Origin: a bacterium
GTDB taxonomy: Bacteria > Patescibacteriota > Minisyncoccia > Phycocordibacterales > CAIZLB01
Length of the DNA: 64,000 nucleotides
NCBI GenBank assembly: GCA_031411135.1
Contig: JANOAN010000007.1
Coordinates: 4,214 to 68,213, forward strand
Reading direction: 5' to 3'
Position numbers and translations under genes: made by a program. The notes beneath the pieces were generated by a model. The model made no database searches. It saw nothing but the letters and a program-made list of their open reading frames with translations, and was not told the DNA's origin. Shown here in pieces: positions 3,316 to 33,712 of this stretch (its first letter is position 1; every line of letters starts with the position of its first letter).

Positions 3316-3894
3316 ATGAGAATCTTCAAATGGCATGTTGGAATTGATGAAGCGGGAAGGGGACCTTTGGCGGGGCCTGTTTCTGTTGGTGCGGTTATGG
3401 TTAAAAGCGATTTCGACTTCTCTATTTTTAAGAATTTGAAAGATAGTAAAAAGTTATCAGAAGCCAGAAGGGAAGAATTTTTTGAAATTATAGAGAAGCA
3501 CAAAATAATTGCCAAAGTCGTTATGATTTCAAATAAAATCATCGACAAAAAGGGGATTTCGTATGCAATCCGTTTTGCAATAAAATCACTACTTAAAAAA
3601 TTAAACCCTAATATTAAGCAGTCAAAAATATTCCTCGATGGCTCCCTAAAAGCCCCAGAAGAATTCACTCAAGAGACAATCATAAAAGGGGACGAGAAAA
3701 TCCCTGTTATCTCTCTTGCTTCTGTAATGGCCAAAGTGACCCGCGATCGATATATGAAAAAAATCTCAAAAAATTATCCTGCTTTTAACTTCGATATTCA
3801 TAAGGGGTATGGCACAAAAAGGCACATAGAGGCGATTAAAAAGCACGGTCCAAGCAAGCTTCATAGAAAAACATTTATCACTAGAATTGTTTAA
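3316..3894 (+). CDS. rnhB: Ribonuclease HII
   Basis: GIDEAGRGPLAGPV active-site motif close to the N-terminus. The ORF opens at 3265 but the Met at 3316 gives a canonical N-terminus. Confidence 0.85.
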   Translation: MRIFKWHVGIDEAGRGPLAGPVSVGAVMVKSDFDFSIFKNLKDSKKLSEARREEFFEIIEKHKIIAKVVMISNKIIDKKGISYAIRFAIKSLLKKLNPNIKQSKIFLDGSLKAPEEFTQETIIKGDEKIPVISLASVMAKVTRDRYMKKISKNYPAFNFDIHKGYGTKRHIEAIKKHGPSKLHRKTFITRIV

Positions 3895-3969
3895 AAAATT
3901 GAGTATAATTCCAAGTAGAAGTTCGCATTCCGCGTGCTCATGAACAACAAGTCGAAAGGAGTCTAAACA

Positions 3970-4821
3970 ATGAACAGAAAAGAACGTTTAAGGTGGGATC
4001 CTGGGTTCATCGATAAAAGCAAAGCAGACCAAACGTGGTACAAAACCCAACTGCCGGAATTCATCACGCAGATCAGTATCCGAAAAAACCTCAGATCCTA
4101 TCTGGCACCAGTCTTAGGGGGTCGGGTTAAGCTAACTAAGCGTCAGGCTAGAAAAATTCTCGACGCTATCAGTCAAAATTATACACTCGAGTTGTGTGAT
4201 TTCTTCAATATCGAAGCTGGTATAGGTAGATTCACACTAGAAGAATTCGTGGTTTGGTTCGACAAGGTGATTCACACTCGTGGTGCATCGTATATGATCA
4301 GAAAGTGCGTTGATCACATGGTTCATCATAGGAAAGTTCAGTTCTCTGAAGTGTCGGTTATTAATTGGGTTGAGCAGGCATTTCTCCAGTCTGCATTCAA
4401 AGATGCTGGAGAATTGCTTCTTGTGACCAAGTATCACTTGAGCCCGCTTCTCTCAAACCATGAATTATGGAGGAACACTCTAGATGCTGCTAGACAGAAA
4501 GGTGATCACGGAATTGCGAGATTGTTTCCGATTCTCCTCATGCGATTGCGACCCAAGCGCGGAAGGCTCTCAAAGAATCGCGCTAAAGGAGTGGCTATGG
4601 TCATCCACGAAGCGTATGTTTCCCGAAAAGACGAAGATGGAAACTGTTTTGAATCAAAATTCTTGATAAGCATGCTCACTGAGTATTTCTCAGCGAAAGC
4701 GACTGCGAGGGTAATGGATGCGTATTATGAAATGTTGGAGATAACTTACACAGCCAAGGCTAAAGAAGTGGAAAGTGCCCTTACTGAAGTTCGGACTCTC
4801 CGCAAACAAGTAAAAAAATAA
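3970..4821 (+). CDS. hypothetical protein, GC-richer than flanking core genes (accessory)
   Basis: 283-aa ORF with no motif I recognise. Base composition is visibly more GC-rich than rnhB/rpmF. It sits next to a TA pair. Confidence 0.5.
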   Translation: MNRKERLRWDPGFIDKSKADQTWYKTQLPEFITQISIRKNLRSYLAPVLGGRVKLTKRQARKILDAISQNYTLELCDFFNIEAGIGRFTLEEFVVWFDKVIHTRGASYMIRKCVDHMVHHRKVQFSEVSVINWVEQAFLQSAFKDAGELLLVTKYHLSPLLSNHELWRNTLDAARQKGDHGIARLFPILLMRLRPKRGRLSKNRAKGVAMVIHEAYVSRKDEDGNCFESKFLISMLTEYFSAKATARVMDAYYEMLEITYTAKAKEVESALTEVRTLRKQVKK

Positions 4822-4892
4822 CGGTCAAATTCAATATATAGAAAGGATAAATAGGAGGCCTGACCAGCCTCTTTTTCTTTTGCTTAGATTAA

Positions 4893-5180
4893 TTAAATCT
4901 TAGTCAATTTTAACTTTGCACCCAATGCGAACGTCAATTTCTGCAAAAAGCTTAACGTAGGATTTCCTTTTCCTGATTCAAATCTGGCAACCACTGATTG
5001 AGAGGTACCTATCATTTCCGCAAGTTTTTTTTGTGTGATGTTCTTTTCTCTGCGGGCTCTTATTATGAGGCGTATAATTTGGAACTCAAGTTCAAGGGCC
5101 TCGTAATGCTTCCTGAATTCAGGATCTTTCATTTCTCTCTTGTGAAGTTCTGTAAAAGTTATACTTCCTTTGTATTTCAT
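4893..5180 (-). CDS. higA: XRE-family HTH antitoxin (HigA-like)
   Basis: 95 aa; helix-turn-helix segment QKKLAEMIGTSQSVVARFESGK; lies downstream of the toxin gene in HigB-HigA order. Confidence 0.7.
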   Translation of the reverse strand: MKYKGSITFTELHKREMKDPEFRKHYEALELEFQIIRLIIRARREKNITQKKLAEMIGTSQSVVARFESGKGNPTLSFLQKLTFALGAKLKLTKI

Positions 5181-5207
5181 AATATGTAATATAGCATATA
5201 TGCTATC

Positions 5208-5513
5208 TCAGTCAAATGCGTTGATTATGTTTAAGGCTTTACGAATCTCACCCGCATCAAGTTTTTGACTTTTCTTTATGTAACCTGAAACTATGATTAT
5301 TACTCCACGTGTGAATGTATAGAATAGGCGGATATTCTGCTCTCCTGGCATCCGTAACTCAAATAGTCTATTCGTTATCTTCTTACAGTGGGGGAGCCTA
5401 AGATTCTCTCCTTCGTTTAACAAAAGCTTGATTTCTCTATGCACTCTCGTTTGAGCTCTTTTACCTAAATTTATGAGAAATTTGTGTGCTGATCTTAATA
5501 ATATAACTTCCAC
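5208..5513 (-). CDS. higB: RelE/ParE-superfamily toxin (Gp49/HigB-like)
   Basis: 101 aa; matches the Gp49-like/HigB pattern (…RLFELRMPGEQNIRLFYTF…GVIIIVSGYIKKSQK); 27-nt gap to the HTH antitoxin gene. Confidence 0.6.
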   Translation of the reverse strand: MEVILLRSAHKFLINLGKRAQTRVHREIKLLLNEGENLRLPHCKKITNRLFELRMPGEQNIRLFYTFTRGVIIIVSGYIKKSQKLDAGEIRKALNIINAFD

Positions 5514-23878: not shown

Positions 23879-24163
23879 TTACTTTTTCTTACGAAACCAC
23901 TTCAGGGCAGTAGGTCTTCGATGAGGACAACCAGGCCAACAACACGGACGACGTTTTCCCTTTCGCAAATCTACGCAAAGTCGTTTGAGGTGTTCTGTTC
24001 GAGTTTCTTCTTTTTTAACAATCGTCACCCAACAAATCCATTCATTGCGTGCAAGTGGTGTTAGTTTGTTCCATAACTCTAAAACATCAGTATTTGATCG
24101 AAGGACTTTTTGCAGGTCTTTGGATACTCGATGAACGACAACAGTTTTTACGTTCGTAGGCAT
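23879..24163 (-). CDS. YdeI/OmpD-associated family protein
   Basis: …LTPLARNEWICWVTIVKKEETRTEHLKRL… pattern. Confidence 0.5.
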   Translation of the reverse strand: MPTNVKTVVVHRVSKDLQKVLRSNTDVLELWNKLTPLARNEWICWVTIVKKEETRTEHLKRLCVDLRKGKRRPCCWPGCPHRRPTALKWFRKKK

Positions 24164-24366
24164 AGGGAAAGTATAGCAGGTATGTGTATTATATGCGGTG
24201 ACCCTTCAGCAGATAGAACCTTTTGGTTCCTTGCAGGGTAGGGTTATTTTTAATGTTTATATATTAACATAACGACCCTTCTCGTGCGTAGGTGATACAT
24301 CATATATTTGCTATAATATGTATATGTGGTATAATATAGGTCGTTATAAGCTCTTTAAATTTCGTG

Positions 24367-24421
24367 TATCGCCATAGCTAAAAGGTACTTACTATATAGG
24401 TATTTTCTAGCTATGGCGATA
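24367..24421. promoter_or_regulatory. 13-bp perfect inverted repeat (operator-like) in a divergent AT-rich promoter region
   Basis: tatcgccatagct (24367-24379) and agctatggcgata (24409-24421) flank a 29-nt spacer. Two TATAAT boxes lie immediately upstream (24310-24350). Confidence 0.35.
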
Positions 24422-24467
24422 AGGTAGCCCGCTAGCACTTGATAGGAAACAACACACCAGTTAATAC

Positions 24468-24656
24468 ATGAATAACGATAAAAATGATAAACCGAAGGAA
24501 GTATGTGTAACTCCACCGGTAGAGAAAAATCAGGATGAGCCTGGTTGGGAGAGCGAAGTCGCTAGGCTTCGAATAGACAGGCCGATGCTTATCGTCTCAA
24601 TGACACTTGGTGAATACAGAAGAAGATACAGGGTGAAGCCCCATACTTACTGCTAG
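24468..24656 (+). CDS. small hypothetical protein (62 aa)
   Basis: ORF downstream of the TATAAT boxes; a terminator follows. Confidence 0.3.
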   Translation: MNNDKNDKPKEVCVTPPVEKNQDEPGWESEVARLRIDRPMLIVSMTLGEYRRRYRVKPHTYC

Positions 24657-24764
24657 TGATTCAAGGCTGAGAGTACGAGATAATATTTGAAATTTAGTTA
24701 GATAATATTTTGGTGTTAAGCAATACACCGAAGACAAAATAGAAATTTTTCCAAAAGTTTCTAC

Positions 24765-24795
24765 ATCCCCGCCGCAACGGGGATTTTGTATTTTA
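24765..24795 (+). terminator. intrinsic terminator
   Basis: atccccg-ccgcaa-cggggat followed by tttgtatttt. Confidence 0.45.
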
Positions 24796-25062
24796 AGGAT
24801 ACAGATGTTGGCTGTTGAAGGTGACCCCATTGCGTGGCTTTCAGAACTTACTAAACAGAGAGATTATATCAAAAGTAGCATTCAAAGTATTTATTTATTC
24901 TCAAACACAGTACACAATTAAGAGTTTTTTAATATAACTCAAAAGCTTGGGAAATGTTTAGAGGTCCTCGTTCGGTGATAAATAAACAGAAAACCCACCA
25001 TCTCGCGACAGAGGGTTTCTGTGTTGAGGTTGGTGGGTTGGCTTGACCTTGAAGTGTTGCTT

Positions 25063-25866
25063 TCAAGAGCGTTTGACGATTGCATATGTCACGTTGTAAA
25101 CGTGAATGTATTCGTCAGGATCGACAATCAATACCTTGTATTTCTCAAGGCAGACGTCGCGATAAAAACGCAAGATCTGCAACTTGGCAGCTTCAAAGTC
25201 TGGCAGTAACTCCTTCTTGGCACGCAAACGGTCCCAGATGTTGACGAAGAATCCATATCCGTCTTTATACCTACTCGCTACGAGGGGGTGTTCATCAAGA
25301 ACCGCATTTAGTGCTTCTGTGGAGAAGATGAAGGGGCAATTCGTTTTACCTTCAAGTCGTGCTAGGAATTGCTCCGCCTCATTTACGAGGGCGGAAAACA
25401 CAGGTCCGGGAACAAAGTGATCTTGAAGTAAGAAGATGCCGCCGGGTTTTAACACCCGAAGAGTCTCATTGATGGCTTGAAGCCAATGTTCACGAGGCAG
25501 GTTGTTGAAACCATACCTGCAAATAGCGACGTCAATACTTTCCGACGAGACTTCCTGCATATTCGTCACATCTGCACAGATGGTCCGAGTCTTAGCATCA
25601 GATTGGATACTACTCAGAATCTGTGCCGAGGCGTCGACAAAGGTCATCTCTGATTCCAAGCCGACTGTTCCGAGATGAAATTGTATTGCTTTTCCTGCAA
25701 GACCTGTACCACAGCACAAATCCAGCACTTTGACGGGGTTTGGTAAGTGTAATCCACGCTCTACTCGATGAAAATCGAGCAGAGCTGAAGCATATCGTTC
25801 GGATTTTGAATCCTCAGTGAATGCTCCAAATGTTTGTAAGTAGCTTTTAGGCCATTGTTCGGGCAT
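25063..25866 (-). CDS. class I SAM-dependent methyltransferase (small-molecule/RNA MTase-like, not an obvious DNA MTase)
   Basis: VLDLCCGTGLAGKAI motif I; LKPGGIFLL post-II motif; no (D/N)PP(Y/F) motif seen; stop codon is TGA. Confidence 0.7.
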   Translation of the reverse strand: MPEQWPKSYLQTFGAFTEDSKSERYASALLDFHRVERGLHLPNPVKVLDLCCGTGLAGKAIQFHLGTVGLESEMTFVDASAQILSSIQSDAKTRTICADVTNMQEVSSESIDVAICRYGFNNLPREHWLQAINETLRVLKPGGIFLLQDHFVPGPVFSALVNEAEQFLARLEGKTNCPFIFSTEALNAVLDEHPLVASRYKDGYGFFVNIWDRLRAKKELLPDFEAAKLQILRFYRDVCLEKYKVLIVDPDEYIHVYNVTYAIVKRS

Positions 25867-26045
25867 ATGAATCTCCAGTTGATTGTTGTGAAAAGAGCGG
25901 TTGTAGAAAACTACAAATCACACGATACCATACAGTATGCAATTTGTCTATAGATGTGAACCAGAGTGTACATTATTCGAATACTTCACCCAACTACGTA
26001 TTTCACCCTTACAAATGAGGAACTTGGCTAAGTGTTCAGAGGTCT

Positions 26046-29000
26046 TCAATTGGTAGATCTACTCTTTGTTTTTTTCATCCTTTCTAGTGTTTCCAGTATG
26101 GGTGGGTTACTTACTCCATCGGGGATCATGGGATCAGTATCTTCAGGTCTGAGACCCATCACTTCAGGATCCATTAGCCCTATTTCCCATGCATTTTTGT
26201 GTATGAAGGTTTTTTTAACAATACCGTGATTAAAAAATATCTTTGGGGGAAACGATTGCTTATCCCTAATGAAAGATGGTGCAATGAGATAGAAGCCCCA
26301 TTGTTTAAAGCTCTCTATAAAGCCATTCAGGTTATTCAACGATTGTGGGGTCATCGTGTGCGTTCTTCCAGCATTCAACACAAGCTTACCTTTTGAATCT
26401 TTAGGATCACCAAGGTTTGTCGATATCACAAACTTATACCAGAGCGGGTTTGTCTTAGAAAAGCCCATGATTGTTGCCACCCGCATAACATCTTTCTTGT
26501 CCTCTCTACCAAGAAGATCTTTCCAATTCCTAAAAATTGCCTTTGCCTTATCCTCATTAGTAAACATTACAGCAAGTACTGGAGGTTGATCTGGCATAAC
26601 AAGGTAAGCGATGCCCTCCCATCCAGCTTCATCCCAAAGATGCCCCTCGATAATTGAGATATTTTCCATCTGATCATGACGTACAGCCTTTCTATCTTTA
26701 TCATCTTTATCGTCCTGTTTATCTGGATCGTCCCTCAATTGCTTCAGCAGTTCGTGCTTTACCTTGCCAGCTTCAGCTTCGTCATATTCATACTTTTTGT
26801 TTTCATCTGAAATCCATTCTCTGATATCTCTTTTTGGCTTATATCCCAAAACATTACCCTGAACCACCAGCGGTGATGAGAATGTAAACGCTCGCACACT
26901 AACCTCTTCATCTCGGAATAGTTTTTCAAGATCCGTATCTGCATTTCTGAATGAAATTGAGTGACCGATAATATTGACCACCGCACTAAACACATCCTTG
27001 TAGAGGCTTTCCTGCTCAGAACGCTTTAGAGAATGAGGGTTAAAATCTCCACAAGCTATATCAAATGCAATAGCTCCATCTTTTTTCACCTCATGGGAAA
27101 CCTTAACACCTAAAGTATCATCGTTGGTGATTGTGATATTCACGATACCATTGTTTCCGTGCGAATCCACCTCTACAGTTGTTGCCAAAAAACCTTCAAG
27201 AGATGCGAGGATGTATTCTCCTATTTCAATGTTAGGGCTACAGTTTTTTGTTTTAATAATAAAGGTTGTGCCTAAAATAACAGACTTAAGCTCAACTTCA
27301 TCACCCTTATAGAAAGCTGGTACATCTGGTAACTGAGCTTGGCTCGGCTGTGTAAAATGAGAGTCAAAATATTCATCAAGTTCTTCGTCGTTCATTTTTT
27401 CTAACAAAACTTGAGGTAAGGCTTTCTTTCCCCCTAATCGGTATATCAATGCGTGTGCAGCGAGATCTAGATCCATACTCATTAGGGTGTCTGGCAGAAG
27501 CTCCAAGGATGGCAAAACCTCATCAGGAGTTTTAATCAACAACAATCCCAACTGAGCACCATAGAACATGTCATCATGCAGAAGTTTTTCCGCCTCTTCA
27601 CTGGATTTAATGTAGTTAACATTCATCATATGGTTCAACTTGTGCCACTCCAGTGAATAACCCACACGTCCCAAGCGAAGTTCCAACAGACGCAAATGAC
27701 CATAAGATAGCAATTGAAGCTTGGTCACTTCACTGTGCTTATGAAAATCCATAGTCGCATAAGAAGCGGCATGTAACATCGCACTCCTTGCAGCCCAAAG
27801 TAGACCGACCTGCTCATACGCACAGGACAGCTGGGCAAGAGCAATTATTAAACCATCTCGTACCTCATCTTTGTAAAGCGGAACAAGAGATCTTCCTAGG
27901 CAATCAATCGCCTTGTAGTATCGCTTACCCTCAACATGCTGTGCGGCTCGATTTAACAGCACCATTGCAGACTCCGTAGTGCTTTTTCTTTCTGACATTA
28001 CTTCAAGCATTTTGTCTTGAAGCTTTTCAAAGCTAGGCACACCGCTGTAAAAATCATTCATCTCGCTGGTCATTTTGTAGAGCGTGTCCAGTGAGAATCC
28101 GAGAAGACCTTTGGAACGCTCAACTATCTGGAAAAGGTTATTGAAGATTACATCCATTGCCGCCTTGTCATCTCTTGATTCAGGCAGCACTAAAATATTT
28201 AGCAACAACTCAGCATGTAGGGCTGCGCTTGGTTTTGATTCATCGTCTTTAAAGGCTTCGAGTCTTCCTTGCACGGTCTTTTTCTTTTCATCTGCATACA
28301 CTGGATCAACCTTGTCACTAATAACGGACAAGGTCTTTAAAACACTCGCAAGATTACCCAACCTCTCCACCTCAAAAAGATTTGCAGAGTCTTTTGCCAA
28401 GGACTCTATCTCTTCATAGTTGCCGATAAGTGCATCAAAGTCGTCATACCAAAAATACAATGTCCACACTTCATGATATCTGGCATTAAAATACTGTTCA
28501 GAAGTTCCGTATTTCTGAGCAAGCCTCTTTGCACGAGCGAACAAACCATCCACATCCGTTTTAACCTTGTTCATTTCAGCACCGCACAATGCTGAAGACA
28601 GTGCATCATCGACGATTGCAAGATTCACTCTATCTTCCTGTACCGCCTGATCTATATCCTTATTCAAAGCCTCAAATGTTCTTTGTCGCTTCGTATCTTT
28701 AGGTCCTGTGCTGACGACCTCTTTATAAGAATCTCCCATCTTCAATTCAACAATTGCGAGATTCTCTCTCTTATTTGCAAAGATTTTATCAATTATCCAT
28801 GTTCGATCATGTATCGTTACTAGAATCCCGTATTGTTTAGTCAGCTCGTCTTCGACTTTTGCACGCTGATCTGCCTTAATAAACCGACTTGTCACAAAGA
28901 ATACTTTTGTATAACCCCTGTCCGTTCCAATCATCTTTTTAACGTCACCCTCTACCTTCGTTTTCCATTTGACTGTGGTGCTGAAAGCGAACCCTCACCG

Positions 29001-29324
29001 TTCAGTAGAAGTTTTTTCGACTCCAAAATAATAAGTATCTTTGATTGCCTCTGACACTGGCGTAGTTTCTGTGTCGACCTTGCCATCACCACCACCTACT
29101 GGACCAGTTTGAGGTCTTAGGTTCGGCTGAATCTCATGTTCACAAAGCTTTCGAGCAAACTCTTCAAAATCATATTCCTGCTTTCTTGTAGAGAGAGTGT
29201 CCAAGTGATACTCCAATTTCAGACTATCAAGCAGAGGTTCTTTGACCATTCGAGTGTCAGAAAAGCTACCGGGGCGGCGTTGCTGCATAAAGCTCTTTGG
29301 AGAAAAGTTTGAGTCCTCTTTCAT
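26046..29324 (-). CDS. large (~1090-codon) protein with N-terminal Mrr-type PD-(D/E)xK restriction-endonuclease-like domain, interrupted by a single in-frame TGA at 28995-28997
   Basis: The 109-aa ORF (28995-29324) and the 962-aa ORF (26046-28934) share one frame and are separated only by TGA. The Mrr_cat-like motif spans the junction (…FEEFARKLCEHEI…GPVGGGDGKVD…YYFGVEKTSTER*…KVFFVTSRFIKADQRAKVEDE…ILVTIHDRTWIIDKI). The remainder is a helical (TPR-like) region followed by beta-rich domains with no recognisable family. Confidence 0.6.
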
Positions 29325-29599
29325 ATTGCTATTTTACCATTTATATGAGGTTTTTTTAAGCTGATTTTGAGCCACATTAATGCTATAATATTTTCGTTGA
29401 CCCACATAGATTCCCCGACTCTTGCACAGGAGTGTTTTCGTCTAGCTTGCGGATACTGACGGGTAGTTAAGCTGCCACAAGCCAGACCGCCTTTGTGCGA
29501 TTTGGGGAATAGTGGGTCAACCAGTTTGGCTACCCATCTGTATAAATCTATAGTTGGGACCCCTCTCTGATTATTAAATAGTGTTGACCTATTTAAATC

Positions 29600-30031
29600 A
29601 TGAAAAAATACTACGGCGTTTTAATCGCATTGTTGCCATTCATTACTGGCACATATAAAAGTTTGGGTAATTGGTCCAGTTCAGAGGCTATCGGATACAA
29701 CGTATTCAATCTGGCTCTGATCGGTTTCGGTATTTATTATTTCGCAAAGCATTGGTCCGAGAAGAAAGAATCCCTCGAGCTTGCTCAATACGACATTGCT
29801 GTGTTCAAGGCATCTGCTTATATTAAGGAACTTTCGGAGGACACCAAGGAAAATGTAACCGTGAAGCGAGTCGCTATGAACGAGATCGGAAACCTTGTGG
29901 ATCTGTTCAGAAAAAACAGGAGCAAGAGCTGGAAGAGCCAGAAAGATATTAATGAGGTTACCAAGTCGTTAAATGACCTCGTAGAGAGCAACAAGGAGCT
30001 TGTAAAGCAGTCTCGGAATCTCGATATCTAG
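29600..30031 (+). CDS. hypothetical membrane protein with C-terminal coiled coil (143 aa)
   Basis: Two N-terminal TM helices; charged helical tail. Confidence 0.45.
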   Translation: MKKYYGVLIALLPFITGTYKSLGNWSSSEAIGYNVFNLALIGFGIYYFAKHWSEKKESLELAQYDIAVFKASAYIKELSEDTKENVTVKRVAMNEIGNLVDLFRKNRSKSWKSQKDINEVTKSLNDLVESNKELVKQSRNLDI

Positions 30032-30059
30032 CCAGTTCATTTTCGTGAACAATTCCCAG

Positions 30060-30224
30060 TTATTTCCCTGTATTAACAGGGAATGTCTTCCACTGTTATT
30101 TCACAGTATTAACTGTGATGTCGCCGCTGTTATTCCGCATTATTAACAGCAGAGCCTGTAGCAGTTTTCTAGCAGTATTAACAGCTATGGACCAGCGTTT
30201 TTCTAGCGTTATTTAACGTCGCTA
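30060..30224 (+). repeat. iteron-like array: five ~22-26-bp degenerate direct repeats at 33-36-bp spacing, each with an internal dyad around TATTAAC
   Basis: ttatttccctgtattaacaggg (30060); ttatttcacagtattaactgtg (30096); gttattccgcattattaacagc (30129); ttttctagcagtattaacagcta (30165); ttttctagcgttatttaacgtcgcta (30198). Confidence 0.65.
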
Positions 30225-30265
30225 AGGGGGTTTATAAGCAACCATTAATCTGCTACATTTTAGCC

Positions 30266-31132
30266 ATGGGAGGAAGCAAACCTTATGGACCAAGATTCAC
30301 AATTTTGGATAAAGCAAGACTTCTTGATAACAAGAAAGTAAGACCTATTGATAGATCCGATAGGGCTTTTATTGATAATGGAAAGCTTGAGGTGTTTTGG
30401 TCCATTAACAGATTCCGTAACGAGTTCATTAAAAAGGCAGAAGACACTCGAAAAGTTTTAGGTATTGAGGTTCTCGATCCTAAAGAAGATGTTTTGATGA
30501 CCAAACTCGGTCACAAAGGTCGTCTATTTGTTCCAAAAAGGCTCTACGTCGGCGTGAACTCCTCATTCCTGAGTAAGTATCCGAAAACCGCTGAAAACCT
30601 TAGAAAATTGATATATTCGAATGTTTTAGTGCCGCTCAACTGGTCCTACAACTTCTATCCTTTTGTTGAGTATTACATTTTATATGGAAAAAAGTCCCCT
30701 GTGGTATTACAACCTAATCCAATGCAGTTTCAGCTAATCATGAAATATCATCGGGAGCTTGGTAGAAATACGTATACAAAATCCGATATCGCATTTTTGA
30801 AACAACAGGCTGTTATTGAGCGATCAGAAAATCCGAAACGTATCAGAGAAATTGAAACCATTGCTTTAGCAGTAGATAAACTACCCAAACTAAAAAATAC
30901 TGACCGACGACCAAAAAACTTAGCACTAAAGACTGCTACTTTTAAGATATTTGAAAAAATACCTGTAAATGCGAAACCTGCAGAAATAAAGCAGTTTATG
31001 GAAGACAATTTATACAACATCATCGATGAATACAGAGAGGATTACAACCCTGATGAAGATGAGGAAAAAGTACTGCTCGCAAATGTGAAAAGGCTCTACA
31101 AAGAGTATCTAAAACTTATCCCCATGAATTGA
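30266..31132 (+). CDS. hypothetical protein (288 aa); candidate replication initiator or iteron-binding regulator
   Basis: Begins 40 bp downstream of the iteron array. Basic and charged; no recognised motif. Confidence 0.45.
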   Translation: MGGSKPYGPRFTILDKARLLDNKKVRPIDRSDRAFIDNGKLEVFWSINRFRNEFIKKAEDTRKVLGIEVLDPKEDVLMTKLGHKGRLFVPKRLYVGVNSSFLSKYPKTAENLRKLIYSNVLVPLNWSYNFYPFVEYYILYGKKSPVVLQPNPMQFQLIMKYHRELGRNTYTKSDIAFLKQQAVIERSENPKRIREIETIALAVDKLPKLKNTDRRPKNLALKTATFKIFEKIPVNAKPAEIKQFMEDNLYNIIDEYREDYNPDEDEEKVLLANVKRLYKEYLKLIPMN

Positions 31133-31702
31133 TGCTTTTCTTACAATTAACTTCAGGGGTGTTTTTGGCGAGACCTTATACTCAATATTGAGATAAGGTT
31201 TTTCTTTATCTCACAATTACTGGGAAGTAAAAAAGACGTATCAATTTCCTCCCAGTAGTTGATATGTCTTTTTTGCTAAAGAGACACGGGAACAATATTC
31301 GGGTAACGGCAACCTATAAGGCCGCCCTGATGATCATAAAAACAGAAGAACAATCACATTGTTATAGGTTGAGGTCGCAGTGGACGAGGCGACCAAAGAC
31401 TAAAGAGTAATGAGTGTCTGGGGTATCACGAACAACCGCCACAGACATCGCACATAACCTCATTACAAGGGTACACCCGCTCCGTTGTACGTAAGAAACT
31501 ATGGTTGAGATTAATGCGAATACTATCTCAATTTTCGATTCGGATTCACACTGTGGCTCCATACCGAAATAGTAAATCAATGTGGTTAGCCTAGCATTTT
31601 TTGTGCCGGGCTTGTTCTCCTGTTCACCACCCGAAATAGTTAGATAAAAATACGTATGCTTTTCAATAAAAAGGTCGGTAATAAATATAGGCAATTGCGA
31701 TA

Positions 31703-31918
31703 ATGCAGACACTACACAATAAAAACGAACAAGGTACACTGATTGAGTACGGACGACGTGCCCAAGAGTCTTTGTGTAGTAATGCACTTTCTAGAGAAAC
31801 ACTTGTTGCAATTGAAGAACTTGGTGAAATATTAAAAAATATTCATGCTAGATTAGCGTCAGAAGGCTATGAAATCATAGATGGTTGCATACGTAAAAAG
31901 ATGCAGAAACGAGTATGA
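31703..31918 (+). CDS. small protein (71 aa) translationally coupled to the recombinase gene (RDF/accessory candidate)
   Basis: Its stop overlaps the recombinase start in an ATGA arrangement (31915-31918). Confidence 0.4.
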   Translation: MQTLHNKNEQGTLIEYGRRAQESLCSNALSRETLVAIEELGEILKNIHARLASEGYEIIDGCIRKKMQKRV

Positions 31919-33636
31919 AAAAATCAAGTATAAAAACTGAAAAAGAAATCGTAGAAGAAATACTCAAGGGAACTTTCCGTGAGTTTTATTTGATATACAA
32001 CAGAAGAAGCATGGATGAGGCGGAAAGCCAAAAGAACTCCATTTCATACCAAAAAGCAGAAAATACAAAGTTTGCTTTCAGAGAAAGGCTTTCTGTTGCT
32101 CAATTTACAATCAAGGGATTTTTGGCGGACGGTATCATTTCCGAAAGTCACTCTGGTTTTACTGAGGATGACGATGTAGTGATCACAGAAGAAGGTATTG
32201 TTCAATACAGGATTGATCGACCAAAGTTTCTACGAATGCTTCAGTTTGTAAGCCAAGGATACTTCAAAGGTGTTATTTGCCTTTGTTGGGACCGTATCAG
32301 TAGGAATAAGGGTGACGACACCGTTATTCGCAAACTTATGCGTAAAGGTGTTGATTTTCGTTTTGCTTATGCAGAGTATGAAAAGTCTAGTTCTGGTGCT
32401 TTACATATGGACATTGACGGTATGTTCTCTCAACACCACTCACGTGTTACTAGTGAGAAAGTCACTATATCTACACGTAACTCGAGGGAAAAAGGTATTT
32501 GTACTTACCGTGCTCCTATTGGTTATCTCAACGAGGGAAAGATGGAAGAAAAACCTCTGGATCCATTTCGTGCACCTGTAATCAAGCAAATGTATGAGTA
32601 CTATGCGACAGGTGACTGGAGTTTGTCAGACCTAGCTCGTTACGCAAATGAGCAGGGCTTTACGACTGTACCAATGCGACGAAGACGAACGAAAGAAGAA
32701 ATGCTTGCCGAAGAAGATGAGTTTGATGAAATTGAAAAGACTTCACGTCCCATAAATGAAAACCATATCAGCAGAATACTCACAAACCCTTTCTATACTG
32801 GGAAAGTCCTCAATTCAGAGGGTAAATACATACCGAGTAATAGCCATCAAGCTATTGTAACCAAAAAGCTATTCGAGGATGTGCAGGCTGTGCTCAAAAA
32901 GAAAAAAGTGATCGTTCATTATACCGAAAAATTGGACCAACCACTCCGAGGTATCGTACGTTGTGAACATTGTGGACGTGTATACACCCCTTACACAAAG
33001 AAAGGTATCCAATACTACAATTCTCGATGCGTAAATGGATGCTCGAACACACTTAAGAACTTTAACTTTGATTTTATTGATAAGAAGATAGGTGATCTTA
33101 TCACTGGCTTACATTTTACTGATGAAGAAATCGAGCAGATGGATGCTCGGGCAGGTACTGAGATTGCTTTGCTCGAAGAAAGACGGCACAAGACACTGGA
33201 CCAAGTTGAGAGAAAGAAGAAAAAGATACGTGAGGATCTTGCGTATCTACGTTCAAACAAAATACCTCTTTTGAAATCGGGTGTATACACTCCAGAAGGT
33301 TATGTTGCTGAAGAAACCAAGCTTGATAGTGAACTTTCAGAACTAAAAAATAGTGAAGATGTTTCGGACATCGCAATGCACGAAACTATGAAAGACGTTC
33401 AAAAACTTTCAGAACTCGTTAAAAACGTTGCAGCATATTATCAATTCGCCAAACCACACGAAAAAGAGCAGATTGTTCGTGTAATCTTTTCAGAACTTTC
33501 AATTTCCCAAAATACGTTGCAATTTAAGTGTAAAAAAGGATTTGAGTGCTTCGAGAATCGCTTTCTTGCTATTTGTGACCCCACAGAGAATCGAACTCTG
33601 ATTACTGCCTTGAAAAGGCAATGTCCTAACCGTTAG
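31915..33636 (+). CDS. large serine recombinase (resolvase catalytic domain + recombinase domain + zinc ribbon + coiled coil)
   Basis: 573 aa; N-terminal YLIYNRRSMDEAESQ (serine-recombinase R-x-S…Q catalytic region); zinc ribbon CEHCGRVYTPY…CVNGC; long C-terminal coiled coil. Confidence 0.8.
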   Translation: MKKSSIKTEKEIVEEILKGTFREFYLIYNRRSMDEAESQKNSISYQKAENTKFAFRERLSVAQFTIKGFLADGIISESHSGFTEDDDVVITEEGIVQYRIDRPKFLRMLQFVSQGYFKGVICLCWDRISRNKGDDTVIRKLMRKGVDFRFAYAEYEKSSSGALHMDIDGMFSQHHSRVTSEKVTISTRNSREKGICTYRAPIGYLNEGKMEEKPLDPFRAPVIKQMYEYYATGDWSLSDLARYANEQGFTTVPMRRRRTKEEMLAEEDEFDEIEKTSRPINENHISRILTNPFYTGKVLNSEGKYIPSNSHQAIVTKKLFEDVQAVLKKKKVIVHYTEKLDQPLRGIVRCEHCGRVYTPYTKKGIQYYNSRCVNGCSNTLKNFNFDFIDKKIGDLITGLHFTDEEIEQMDARAGTEIALLEERRHKTLDQVERKKKKIREDLAYLRSNKIPLLKSGVYTPEGYVAEETKLDSELSELKNSEDVSDIAMHETMKDVQKLSELVKNVAAYYQFAKPHEKEQIVRVIFSELSISQNTLQFKCKKGFECFENRFLAICDPTENRTLITALKRQCPNR

Positions 33637-33712
33637 ACGATGGGGCCATATTTGTCCCAAAGAATATAACATTTTTTTGGAAAAAGGCAAAAAAGAGGTA
33701 TATAATTAGCAT

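Follow-up and report, generated by a model that had tools for sequence, protein, structure and literature searches.

A conserved array of five direct repeats lies immediately upstream of the gene for a 288-amino-acid (288-aa) protein in a stretch of 64,000 nucleotides (nt) from a patescibacterial contig (GTDB order Phycocordibacterales, assembly GCA_031411135.1, contig JANOAN010000007.1, positions 4,214 to 68,213 of the forward strand), here called the window. The array is genuine, conserved and of an unusual design, and is most fittingly classed as a protein-binding repeat array of a new variety. Here it is tentatively proposed, with a probability of about 0.4 and from the sequence, that it serves as an operator or iteron-like control region bound by protein on duplex DNA, with the 288-aa protein as the binder. 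The host of the window belongs to the Patescibacteria, or candidate phyla radiation (CPR), and has a small genome with ~39% GC; related loci (labelled L001, L002 and so on) were found in metagenome-assembled genomes of Paceibacteria and Saccharibacteria. The family of CPR integrative elements to which these loci belong is rare and undescribed.

All five degenerate direct repeats quoted in an initial annotation of this DNA are present in the window sequence at 30059-30224, and the dyad that it had described in each of them is centred on TATTAA, with stems of 5-8 bp. A repeat search returned a 24-nt family with four copies at 30059, 30095, 30129 and 30164 (spacing 36, 34 and 35), as well as a separate pair, D4, connecting the fourth and fifth copies at a spacing of 34, and Tandem Repeats Finder (TRF) gave a period of 34 with a score of 101 at 30059-30149. 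The degenerate pattern TTWTYYNNCWKTATTWAMWG has four zero-mismatch matches in the 64 kb, all within the array, and unit 5 is a two-mismatch match; when up to two mismatches are allowed, there are 11 matches against 2.06 expected, a number reached in none of 100 shuffles. A covariance model of the unit, whose training set included the window units, has five matches in the window, all on the plus strand (30053-30083, 30089-30119, 30123-30153, 30158-30188 and 30192-30222), and finds no further array unit on either strand of the 64 kb. The array and its units, with the covariance-model scores, are as follows.

30053-30222, plus strand: repeat array of five units by the covariance model, start-to-start spacing 36/34/35/34 bp
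30053-30083, plus strand: unit 1, TTCCCAG-TTATTT-CCCTG-TATTAA-CAGGGAA, 40.7 bits, stem of 7 bp
30089-30119, plus strand: unit 2, TCCACTG-TTATTT-CACAG-TATTAA-CTGTGAT, 37.4 bits, stem of 6 bp
30123-30153, plus strand: unit 3, GCCGCTG-TTATTC-CGCAT-TATTAA-CAGCAGA, 32.0 bits
30158-30188, plus strand: unit 4, GTAGCAG-TTTTCT-AGCAG-TATTAA-CAGCTAT, 36.9 bits
30192-30224, plus strand: unit 5, CCAGCGT-TTTTCT-AGCGT-TATTTA-ACGTCGCTA, 27.3 bits, of the TAGCGT type and adjoining the promoter

Between the end of the last unit (30224) and the ATG of the 288-aa gene (30266) there is a gap of 41 nt, which agrees with the distance of about 40 bp first given. A TAGCGT-type unit is the promoter-proximal one also in L001, L012, L013 and L016. 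No Rfam family matches the array or the equivalent regions of the other loci. Single units were considered as promoters or terminators and rejected, their spacing being unsuitable and T-runs missing.

When 40 units from 10 loci are aligned on the TATTAA motif, they have a common layout, consisting of a first arm X1 (7 nt), a T-rich spacer (TTATTT or TTTTCT), a second arm X2, TATTAA and a third arm X'. The X2 arm with the two bases before it is a copy of X1 at an offset of 11 nt, and X' is the reverse complement, so that the centres of X1, X2 and X' lie 11 nt apart in the order direct, direct, inverted. Only one C per arm and the AT-rich segments are invariant. The arm sequences change from unit to unit (CCCTG, CACAG, CGCTG/CGCAT, AGCAG, AGCGT and CCCAT among them), because of which the units are not near-identical iterons, and by inspection no arm type is repeated within any one array. 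The first description of the repeats was thus correct in their number and dyad; it had overlooked that the 5' arm recurs as a direct copy 11 nt further upstream and that the arms are unit-specific.

The three arms of a unit change together. Across the 40 units, the mean number of matches out of seven is 5.30 between X1 and X2, 5.25 between X2 and the reverse complement of X', and 4.95 between X1 and the reverse complement of X', against means of about 3.4-3.5 when arms are swapped between units, and the observed means were reached in none of 5000 permutations. In the X2/X' hairpin, 80.9% of the cells are paired compared with 61.4% in shuffles and at most 49% in slid controls; the cells with changes on both sides number 63 against 25.9 in shuffles and the covariation score is 0.482 against 0.162 (none of 500 shuffles as high in any of the three measures), counts that overstate the independent events because the units come from related arrays. 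The X1/X' pairing behaves likewise (77.1% versus 56.3%), and in unit 3 of the window the arm comparison makes X1, rather than X2, the pairing partner of X'.

The array is followed by a promoter and by the gene that would be controlled from it.

30231-30259, plus strand: promoter of the 288-aa gene, as read from the sequence, with TTTATA, a 17-nt spacer and the extended -10 TGcTACATT
30266-31132, plus strand: core orphan gene of 288 aa, the candidate array binder

The extended -10 of the window is TGCTACATT at 30251-30259 and ends 6 nt before the ATG, and a TGnTAnAWT-like motif stands 5-8 nt (mostly 6 nt) before the ATG in the homologous loci that were read; neither in these nor in the window is there a Shine-Dalgarno sequence at the usual distance. 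Because the -10 sits 5-8 nt from the start codon, the 288-aa gene is probably expressed from the extended -10 promoter as a leaderless mRNA, and the start codon itself is confirmed by the conservation of the N-terminus MxGRKPYGPRFTI. The array ends about 7 bp before the -35-like hexamer, that is, at the -35 position. It is not the leader of the 288-aa mRNA, since the conserved promoter of the gene lies between array and ATG.

The 288-aa family is very small, with 17 homologues among 5.8e9 proteins and 26 representatives among 1.84e9. An AlphaFold2 model from the 17 sequences (predicted local distance difference test, pLDDT, 86.2; predicted template modelling score, pTM, 0.83) consists of 15 helices and one beta hairpin and is otherwise all-alpha. 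The protein has no match in Pfam, PHROGs, NCBIfam or PADLOC, and none of the 17 members has a Pfam match up to an E-value of 10; profile searches of PDB sequences with the family gave nothing meaningful, and the best E-value of the model in Foldseek against PDB (entries up to April 2026) and BFVD was about 0.9. The winged-helix or Rep fold that the initial annotation had suggested looking for is thus not found by Foldseek against PDB; nor is an enzymatic fold unrelated to the array, which would have spoken against its proposal. The 288-aa protein is no unrelated enzyme, and no Rep can be recognised in it. Its conserved features are a basic N-terminal arm (GRKPYGPRF...KKxKPIDRSDR) and the motifs WSYNFYPF, PNP, ELGRNxYTKSD and RRPKN, and the family has neither a HUH motif nor an invariant histidine.

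Arrays of 4-7 units, always on the strand of the gene and immediately upstream of it, are present wherever the protein of the locus reaches about 31% identity to that of the window, so the repeats are not absent from homologous loci, the other finding that would have spoken against the first interpretation. The number and order of the units vary among arrays; the CACAG unit (unit 2) of the window, for example, is missing from the otherwise similar array of L001. The spacing from unit to unit is discrete, with 31-37 nt found 24 times, 45-47 nt eight times and 57-58 nt twice and nothing in between, so that the steps of about 11-12 nt resemble the spacing of the arms; a Rayleigh periodicity test on the spacings gave a broad peak and is used descriptively only. 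No correspondence was seen between the arm types and the target tRNA of the element, as the same types are common to elements at tRNA-Glu and tRNA-Ala.

The arrays are also mosaic. Between L001 and L012, as well as between the window and L012, identity is about 87-90% as far as the last unit reaches, after which the sequences are unrelated, and the similarity between the window and L016 ends after unit 2. Between L012 and L016, identity is 89% through unit 1 and returns, at 91%, downstream of the gene; the rest of the array and the gene were therefore exchanged together as one cassette. The breaks in similarity fall at unit boundaries, at 30118 and 30218 in the window, 4832 and 4943 in L012, and 9955 in L001.

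The duplex, protein-bound reading is favoured because the three arms are phased at one turn, the units are spaced in discrete steps, the array keeps a fixed position at the promoter and X1 covaries as well. Helical phasing of the units fits duplex DNA, and RNA would not require it; X1 covaries as strongly as X2, which is more than a simple hairpin needs. It is further supported by the joint replacement of array and gene between L012 and L016, by the occurrence of the array at a single site of the window and in a fixed orientation, and by the basic N-terminal arm, the conserved RRPKN motif and the lack of an enzymatic fold in the 288-aa protein. The small size of the integrative element, its defined ends and the failure of family searches to reveal any further replication or regulatory candidate among its genes also agree with this. 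Under this proposal, an oligomer of a protein, most likely the element's own 288-aa core protein, would dock on the duplex array, which would form a platform set against the leaderless promoter. Each unit would present three copies of a short arm, each followed by an AT-rich segment (arm-T-W-ATT), and because the core centres are 11 bp apart, the three arms would lie on one face of the helix. With units succeeding one another at 31-37 bp, or at one or two extra steps of 11-12 bp, arrays of 4-7 units would form a nucleoprotein complex of 170-260 bp reaching the -35 position. The likely outcome would be autoregulation of the core gene, and the complex might also help to replicate or maintain the circle once the serine recombinase has excised it.

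Among known systems, this arrangement can be compared with ParR-parC of R1 and the omega heptads of pSM19035, in which ribbon-helix-helix proteins cooperatively coat a long array of short sites, set at about one helical turn in mixed direct and inverted orientation, immediately upstream of a promoter. The 11-nt phasing of the arms, the spacing classes of 31-37, 45-47 and 57-58 bp and the end of the array at the -35 position are similar. However, the sites of ParR and omega have a single consensus without co-varying arms, and the element encodes neither a partition NTPase nor a ribbon-helix-helix protein.

Several observations weigh against the proposal. No DNA-binding domain was detected in the 288-aa protein. 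In a distant branch with about 25% protein identity (L022-L024 and L015), the unit model finds no array although the gene order is kept, and merely about 56 bp separates the upstream gene from the homologue of the 288-aa gene. L001 and L012 have near-identical arrays and no DNA similarity to the right of them, yet their proteins are 72% and 43% identical, respectively, to the window protein, and therefore protein and array do not co-evolve tightly. The arms change in a compensatory manner, for example from CCCTG/CAGGG to CCCAG/CTGGG to CCCAT/ATGGG, which a homodimer on duplex DNA does not explain, so that base pairing or concerted evolution is needed as well. As to a possible part in replication, an AT-rich unwinding element, a cluster of DnaA boxes and a Rep fold are all missing. 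The protein-bound reading could be reconciled with the covariation if the protein reads the constant C, T and AT-rich positions and pairing in a melted or extruded state keeps the three arms alike. Alternatively, template-switch correction between close repeats may keep them alike; this needs frequent exchange of arrays, which the mosaic pattern supports.

The compensatory changes, together with the difference of all stems within an array, favour instead a folded single strand, in which the array would act as a row of 4-7 short hairpins whose loop, TATTAA, is constant and whose stems differ from unit to unit. This alternative, a serious rival that is nonetheless judged doubtful, could concern RNA (a protein-binding decoy, an antitoxin-like array or a structured upstream leader) or single-stranded DNA (a priming site, a single-strand origin or a transfer signal). 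Besides the strong support for the X2/X' stem, X' follows X2 in 12 and X1 in five of the units in which the two differ, and the array folds as a single strand with z-scores of -4.75 as DNA and -3.88 as RNA; the G-T wobble counts of the two strands (16 versus 9) are not decisive for the choice of strand. The lack of a repeated arm type per array would prevent misfolding, the orientation to the gene is fixed, and several loci have, 5' of the array, a gene in the same direction that lacks a strong terminator. However, a hairpin gives no reason for X1 to covary equally, the 11-nt phasing and discrete spacing resemble helical phasing, and the promoter between array and ATG separates the array from the mRNA of the gene. 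Neither a promoter nor a terminator brackets the array, the upstream gene is divergent in L005 and L014, and besides the lack of an Rfam match, no initiator of the HUH or Rep_trans type and no relaxase was found.

The layout of the array has some likeness to the ssoA single-strand origins, as both have orientation-specific, hairpin-rich non-coding DNA upstream of a gene, in ssoA a replication gene. The two differ in that a HUH/Rep_trans initiator is missing here, TAGCGT lies in the stem and not in the loop, and there are several small hairpins instead of one long imperfect palindrome. The hexamer TAGCGT, one of the arm types, is the CS-6 element of ssoA, a resemblance that is probably due to chance.

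Arrays of this kind were at first read either as cooperative regulator-binding sites of a novel family, which fits the results better, or as a replication origin, for which no support was gained. In the latter reading, regarded here as unlikely, the repeats would be the iterons of the excised element and the 288-aa protein its Rep initiator. The iterons of theta plasmids (F, P1, pPS10, R6K) are near-identical repeats of 17-22 bp, bound by a two-winged-helix Rep and accompanied by an AT-rich region and DnaA boxes, and they have the classical double role of origin and autoregulatory operator. Like them, the array has phased direct repeats 5' of a gene for a protein of about 290 aa, reaches the promoter region and belongs to a mobile element; this is the classical layout, with the repeats directly before a Rep-sized orphan. 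The element has no other replication gene, arrays are kept at the homologous loci, and initiators are highly diverse and frequently orphans. Unlike theta-plasmid iterons, the units are 31-nt composites with constant TTATTT and TATTAA, unit-specific arms and 71-83% identity to the reference copy. In contrast to Rep_3/RepA origins, the locus offers no two-winged-helix initiator, as the 288-aa protein has no such fold and no match to Rep_3, RepA or HUH families. The AT-rich DNA unwinding element that could be expected near an origin is missing, GC being 0.37-0.45 across and beside the array compared with ~0.39 in the window; there is no DnaA-box cluster near the array, only isolated one-mismatch boxes at 30304 and 31116; and GC skew is uninformative at this scale. 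The existence of array-less homologues also speaks against this alternative. No circular contig of the element was found. Searches of viral collections gave neither the 288-aa protein, the conserved non-coding block described below nor the array, and the TAGCG unit had just three single matches in IMG/VR, which were rejected as unrelated and due to chance.

The lambda origin provides a second comparison, with about four mutually similar iterons inside the O gene, each an inverted repeat and bound by the O protein. Both have about four or more repeats containing an inverted repeat, those of lambda being bound by an element-encoded initiator; however, the arms of the array differ between units and are joined by an extra direct arm copy.

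A more speculative combination of the hairpin and iteron ideas, rather unlikely as a whole, would make each unit a structure-specific "hairpin iteron" with a TATTAA loop, a unit-specific stem and an upstream copy of the 5' arm giving two alternative pairings. The new all-alpha family would then read folded single-stranded DNA or RNA and, with the conserved non-coding block, would constitute a hitherto undescribed apparatus by which small integrative elements of CPR bacteria replicate, transfer or control their excision. Canonical relaxases are mostly missing in the CPR phylum (PMC12102498).

It is very unlikely that the array is mainly a site of recombination or module exchange, at which related elements swap cargo and core modules. 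The breaks in similarity at unit boundaries (the last unit in L001/L012 and window/L012, unit 1 in L012/L016 and unit 2 in window/L016) and the variable order and number of the units agree with this, but any short conserved sequence that separates diverged modules should show such breakpoints. We know of no recombinase acting on sites like these units. A serine integrase needs its attachment (att) sites only, which lie about 3.4 and 5.2 kb away, and the strict placement next to the promoter would be left unexplained.

The array resembles two known types of guide-RNA or antitoxin repeats in having a period of about 34-36 nt, two alternating conserved motifs and an adjoining helical orphan of about 290 aa in a CPR mobile element. 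ToxI of the ToxIN type III toxin-antitoxin system consists of about five near-identical repeats of about 36 nt that are transcribed with the toxin gene through a terminator, the toxin (ToxN/AbiQ) being an endoribonuclease. About five tandem units of about 36 nt directly 5' of a protein gene are found here too, but the units are heterogeneous, the protein is all-alpha, a promoter and not a terminator follows the array, and there is no ToxN/AbiQ match in Pfam or PADLOC. TIGR-Tas systems have been reported in CPR bacteria and phages, with 5-15 copies of 36-nt units, each composed of an edge repeat, a 9-nt spacer A, a loop repeat and a 9-nt spacer B, and with a 293-aa protein in the case of FpTasA (PMC12045711). 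Tas proteins have a Nop domain, and TIGR arrays are transcribed, processed into 36-nt RNAs and followed by a terminator. The array is similar in its units of about 36 nt with two alternating motifs, its helical protein of about 290 aa and its location in CPR mobile elements, and differs in its promoter after the array and its asymmetric motif spacing (11 and 23-25 nt, not 18/18). Its variable parts are mutual copies or complements and not independent 9-nt spacers. The 288-aa family is unrelated to TasA (hhalign of the family profile versus FpTasA gave a probability of 0.08% and an E-value of 0.62) and has no significant Foldseek match in PDB, although that library should hold Nop-domain structures; Pfam is uninformative on the Nop domain, because FpTasA itself gets no Nop match. 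A known system of either type is thus most improbable, and identity with TIGR-Tas is rejected, since its defining features (profile, motif spacing and spacer independence) fail.

From the sequence around the array we infer an integrative element of about 8.75 kb, at about 24821-33583. To the left of the element are ValS and TsaD, and to the right a NUDIX gene, tRNA-Val, a thioredoxin-reductase-like gene and FtsZ. The features of the element outside the array and its gene are the following.

24811-24902, no strand assigned: candidate left junction attL, in which the core GTGACCCCA at 24821-24829 repeats the tRNA-Glu 3' end
25063-25866, minus strand: cargo, class I methyltransferase with a weak PADLOC mad2 match (4e-11)
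26046-28934, minus strand: cargo, 962-aa protein without a match in Pfam, PHROGs, NCBIfam or PADLOC
28995-29324, minus strand: cargo, 109-aa protein without a match in the same four collections
29600-30031, plus strand: 143-aa gene upstream of the array, with a hydrophobic N-terminal part, in some loci only and without a family match
30035-30050, no strand assigned: palindrome GTTCA-N6-TGAAC directly 5' of the array, with one match in the window
31265-31642, plus strand: class A non-coding block of ~380 nt, separating the 288-aa gene from the recombinase operon
31703-31918, plus strand: 71-aa open reading frame (ORF) overlapping the recombinase start by 4 nt, conserved in L005 and L013
31915-33636, plus strand: large serine recombinase of 573 aa (Pfam Resolvase, Recombinase and Zn_ribbon_recom; PHROG integrase, 8e-58)
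33575-33647, minus strand: tRNA-Glu(UUC), right junction attR, with the core GTGACCCCA at 33575-33583

As in other serine-recombinase integrative elements, the recombinase lies at one end beside the attachment site and a candidate for the second junction is recognisable. The 3' end of the recombinase gene overlaps the antisense tRNA gene in the window and in L001, L005, L006, L014 and L016. The left end was placed through similarity to L005, because there is no tRNA-derived direct repeat of at least 11 nt marking it; the 92-bp segment at 24811-24902 is 86% identical to L005 8325-8416, at the equivalent place of the L005 element. The L005 recombinase is 85% identical to that of the window and its element occupies the same tRNA, although it would be only about 5 kb long. 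About 0.9 kb without an ORF of at least 100 aa, with AT-rich and palindromic stretches, is located at the inferred left junction (24150-25060). The target tRNAs across loci are Glu, Ala, Asn and Gln, that of L016 being untyped, and recombinases aimed at different tRNAs are only about 21% identical to each other. In L004, a copy of 14 or more nt of the tRNA-Gln end lies within the recombinase gene, 175 bp before the tRNA. L005 also has a LOOT RNA (Rfam RF03000, 78 bits) at 3878-3997 on the minus strand, beside a second serine recombinase gene (4154-5470), which together look like a neighbouring, tandemly inserted element.

Eleven related loci have a common core, in the order small upstream gene, array, gene of 277-309 aa, non-coding block of about 0.5 kb, small ORF or ORFs, serine recombinase and tRNA gene. 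The cargo on the left side is variable and includes an N6/N4 methyltransferase with a ResIII helicase, SduA_C, a Schlafen-type ATPase, DUF4411 with a peptidase M78, and large orphans. The 143-aa product of the window is, from its sequence, probably a membrane protein, and the 71-aa ORF is a candidate for a recombinase partner or directionality factor. The palindrome GTTCA-N6-TGAAC also stands just 5' of the array in L001, L002, L003, L007, L008, L011, L012 and L013 and about 160 bp upstream of it in L005; it may serve the 143-aa gene on its 5' side as an operator or a weak terminator.

The class A block is found also in L001 (11000-11380), L005 (11029-11416), L013 (5670-6046) and L006 (7031-7410), with 82-90% DNA identity, compared with 42-72% for the 288-aa proteins and only about 21% for the recombinases of these loci. 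Its indels are of 1-2 nt and it has no codon periodicity (substituted columns 36/33/32 by phase); there are a few compensatory pairs, the fold z-scores are -3.1 and -3.4, about -3 on both strands, and no Rfam family matches. On its 5' side are terminator hairpins at 31173-31205 and 31235-31274 and an extended -10-like motif, TGCTAAAGA, at 31274-31282. The segment 31220-31274, conserved in the class A loci, has interleaved inverted repeats (CTGGGAAG/CCTCCCAG and GACGTATCAA/TTGATATGTC) with A- and T-runs on both sides and looks like a bidirectional terminator or a pseudoknot-like element. Candidate roles of the class A block are those of a structured RNA, of a leader to the recombinase operon and of some other cis element, for instance the true origin. 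A role as a guide of the recombinase is unlikely, because the block is 90% identical between tRNA-Glu and tRNA-Ala elements whose recombinases are 21% identical.

At the equivalent position, L016 (9353-9517), L012 (6243-6408), L014 (3737-3899) and L004 (2827-2992) have a GC-rich class B block, with compensatory changes in 15 of 39 predicted pairs among only four sequences and no Rfam match in L016. No homology was found between the two classes, as nhmmer with class A and the covariance model of class B each find their own class only, the latter missing also the loci of the L022 type. In the array-less branch, GC-rich and hairpin-rich non-coding DNA is located at L022 3627-3996 and 5344-5826 (and at the equivalent places of L024), one region upstream of a 152-aa gene and the other downstream of the 277-aa homologue, without an Rfam match.

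To our knowledge, the mobile elements of the Patescibacteria/CPR are barely characterised, also in how they replicate, transfer or control excision. With this locus, a rare family is defined of small serine-recombinase elements that target tRNA genes and have defence-type cargo, and whose core is made of unknowns, namely an orphan protein with a confidently predicted but unmatched fold, an array with co-varying arms, and a non-coding block conserved beyond the surrounding genes. If the array were merely an autoregulatory operator, it would be of modest interest. If it is the binding platform of the 288-aa protein, the two would form a defined protein-DNA pair, in which unit-specific arms with compensatory changes would represent an unusual recognition logic for an operator or origin, and the elements could become a source of parts for genetic tools in CPR bacteria.

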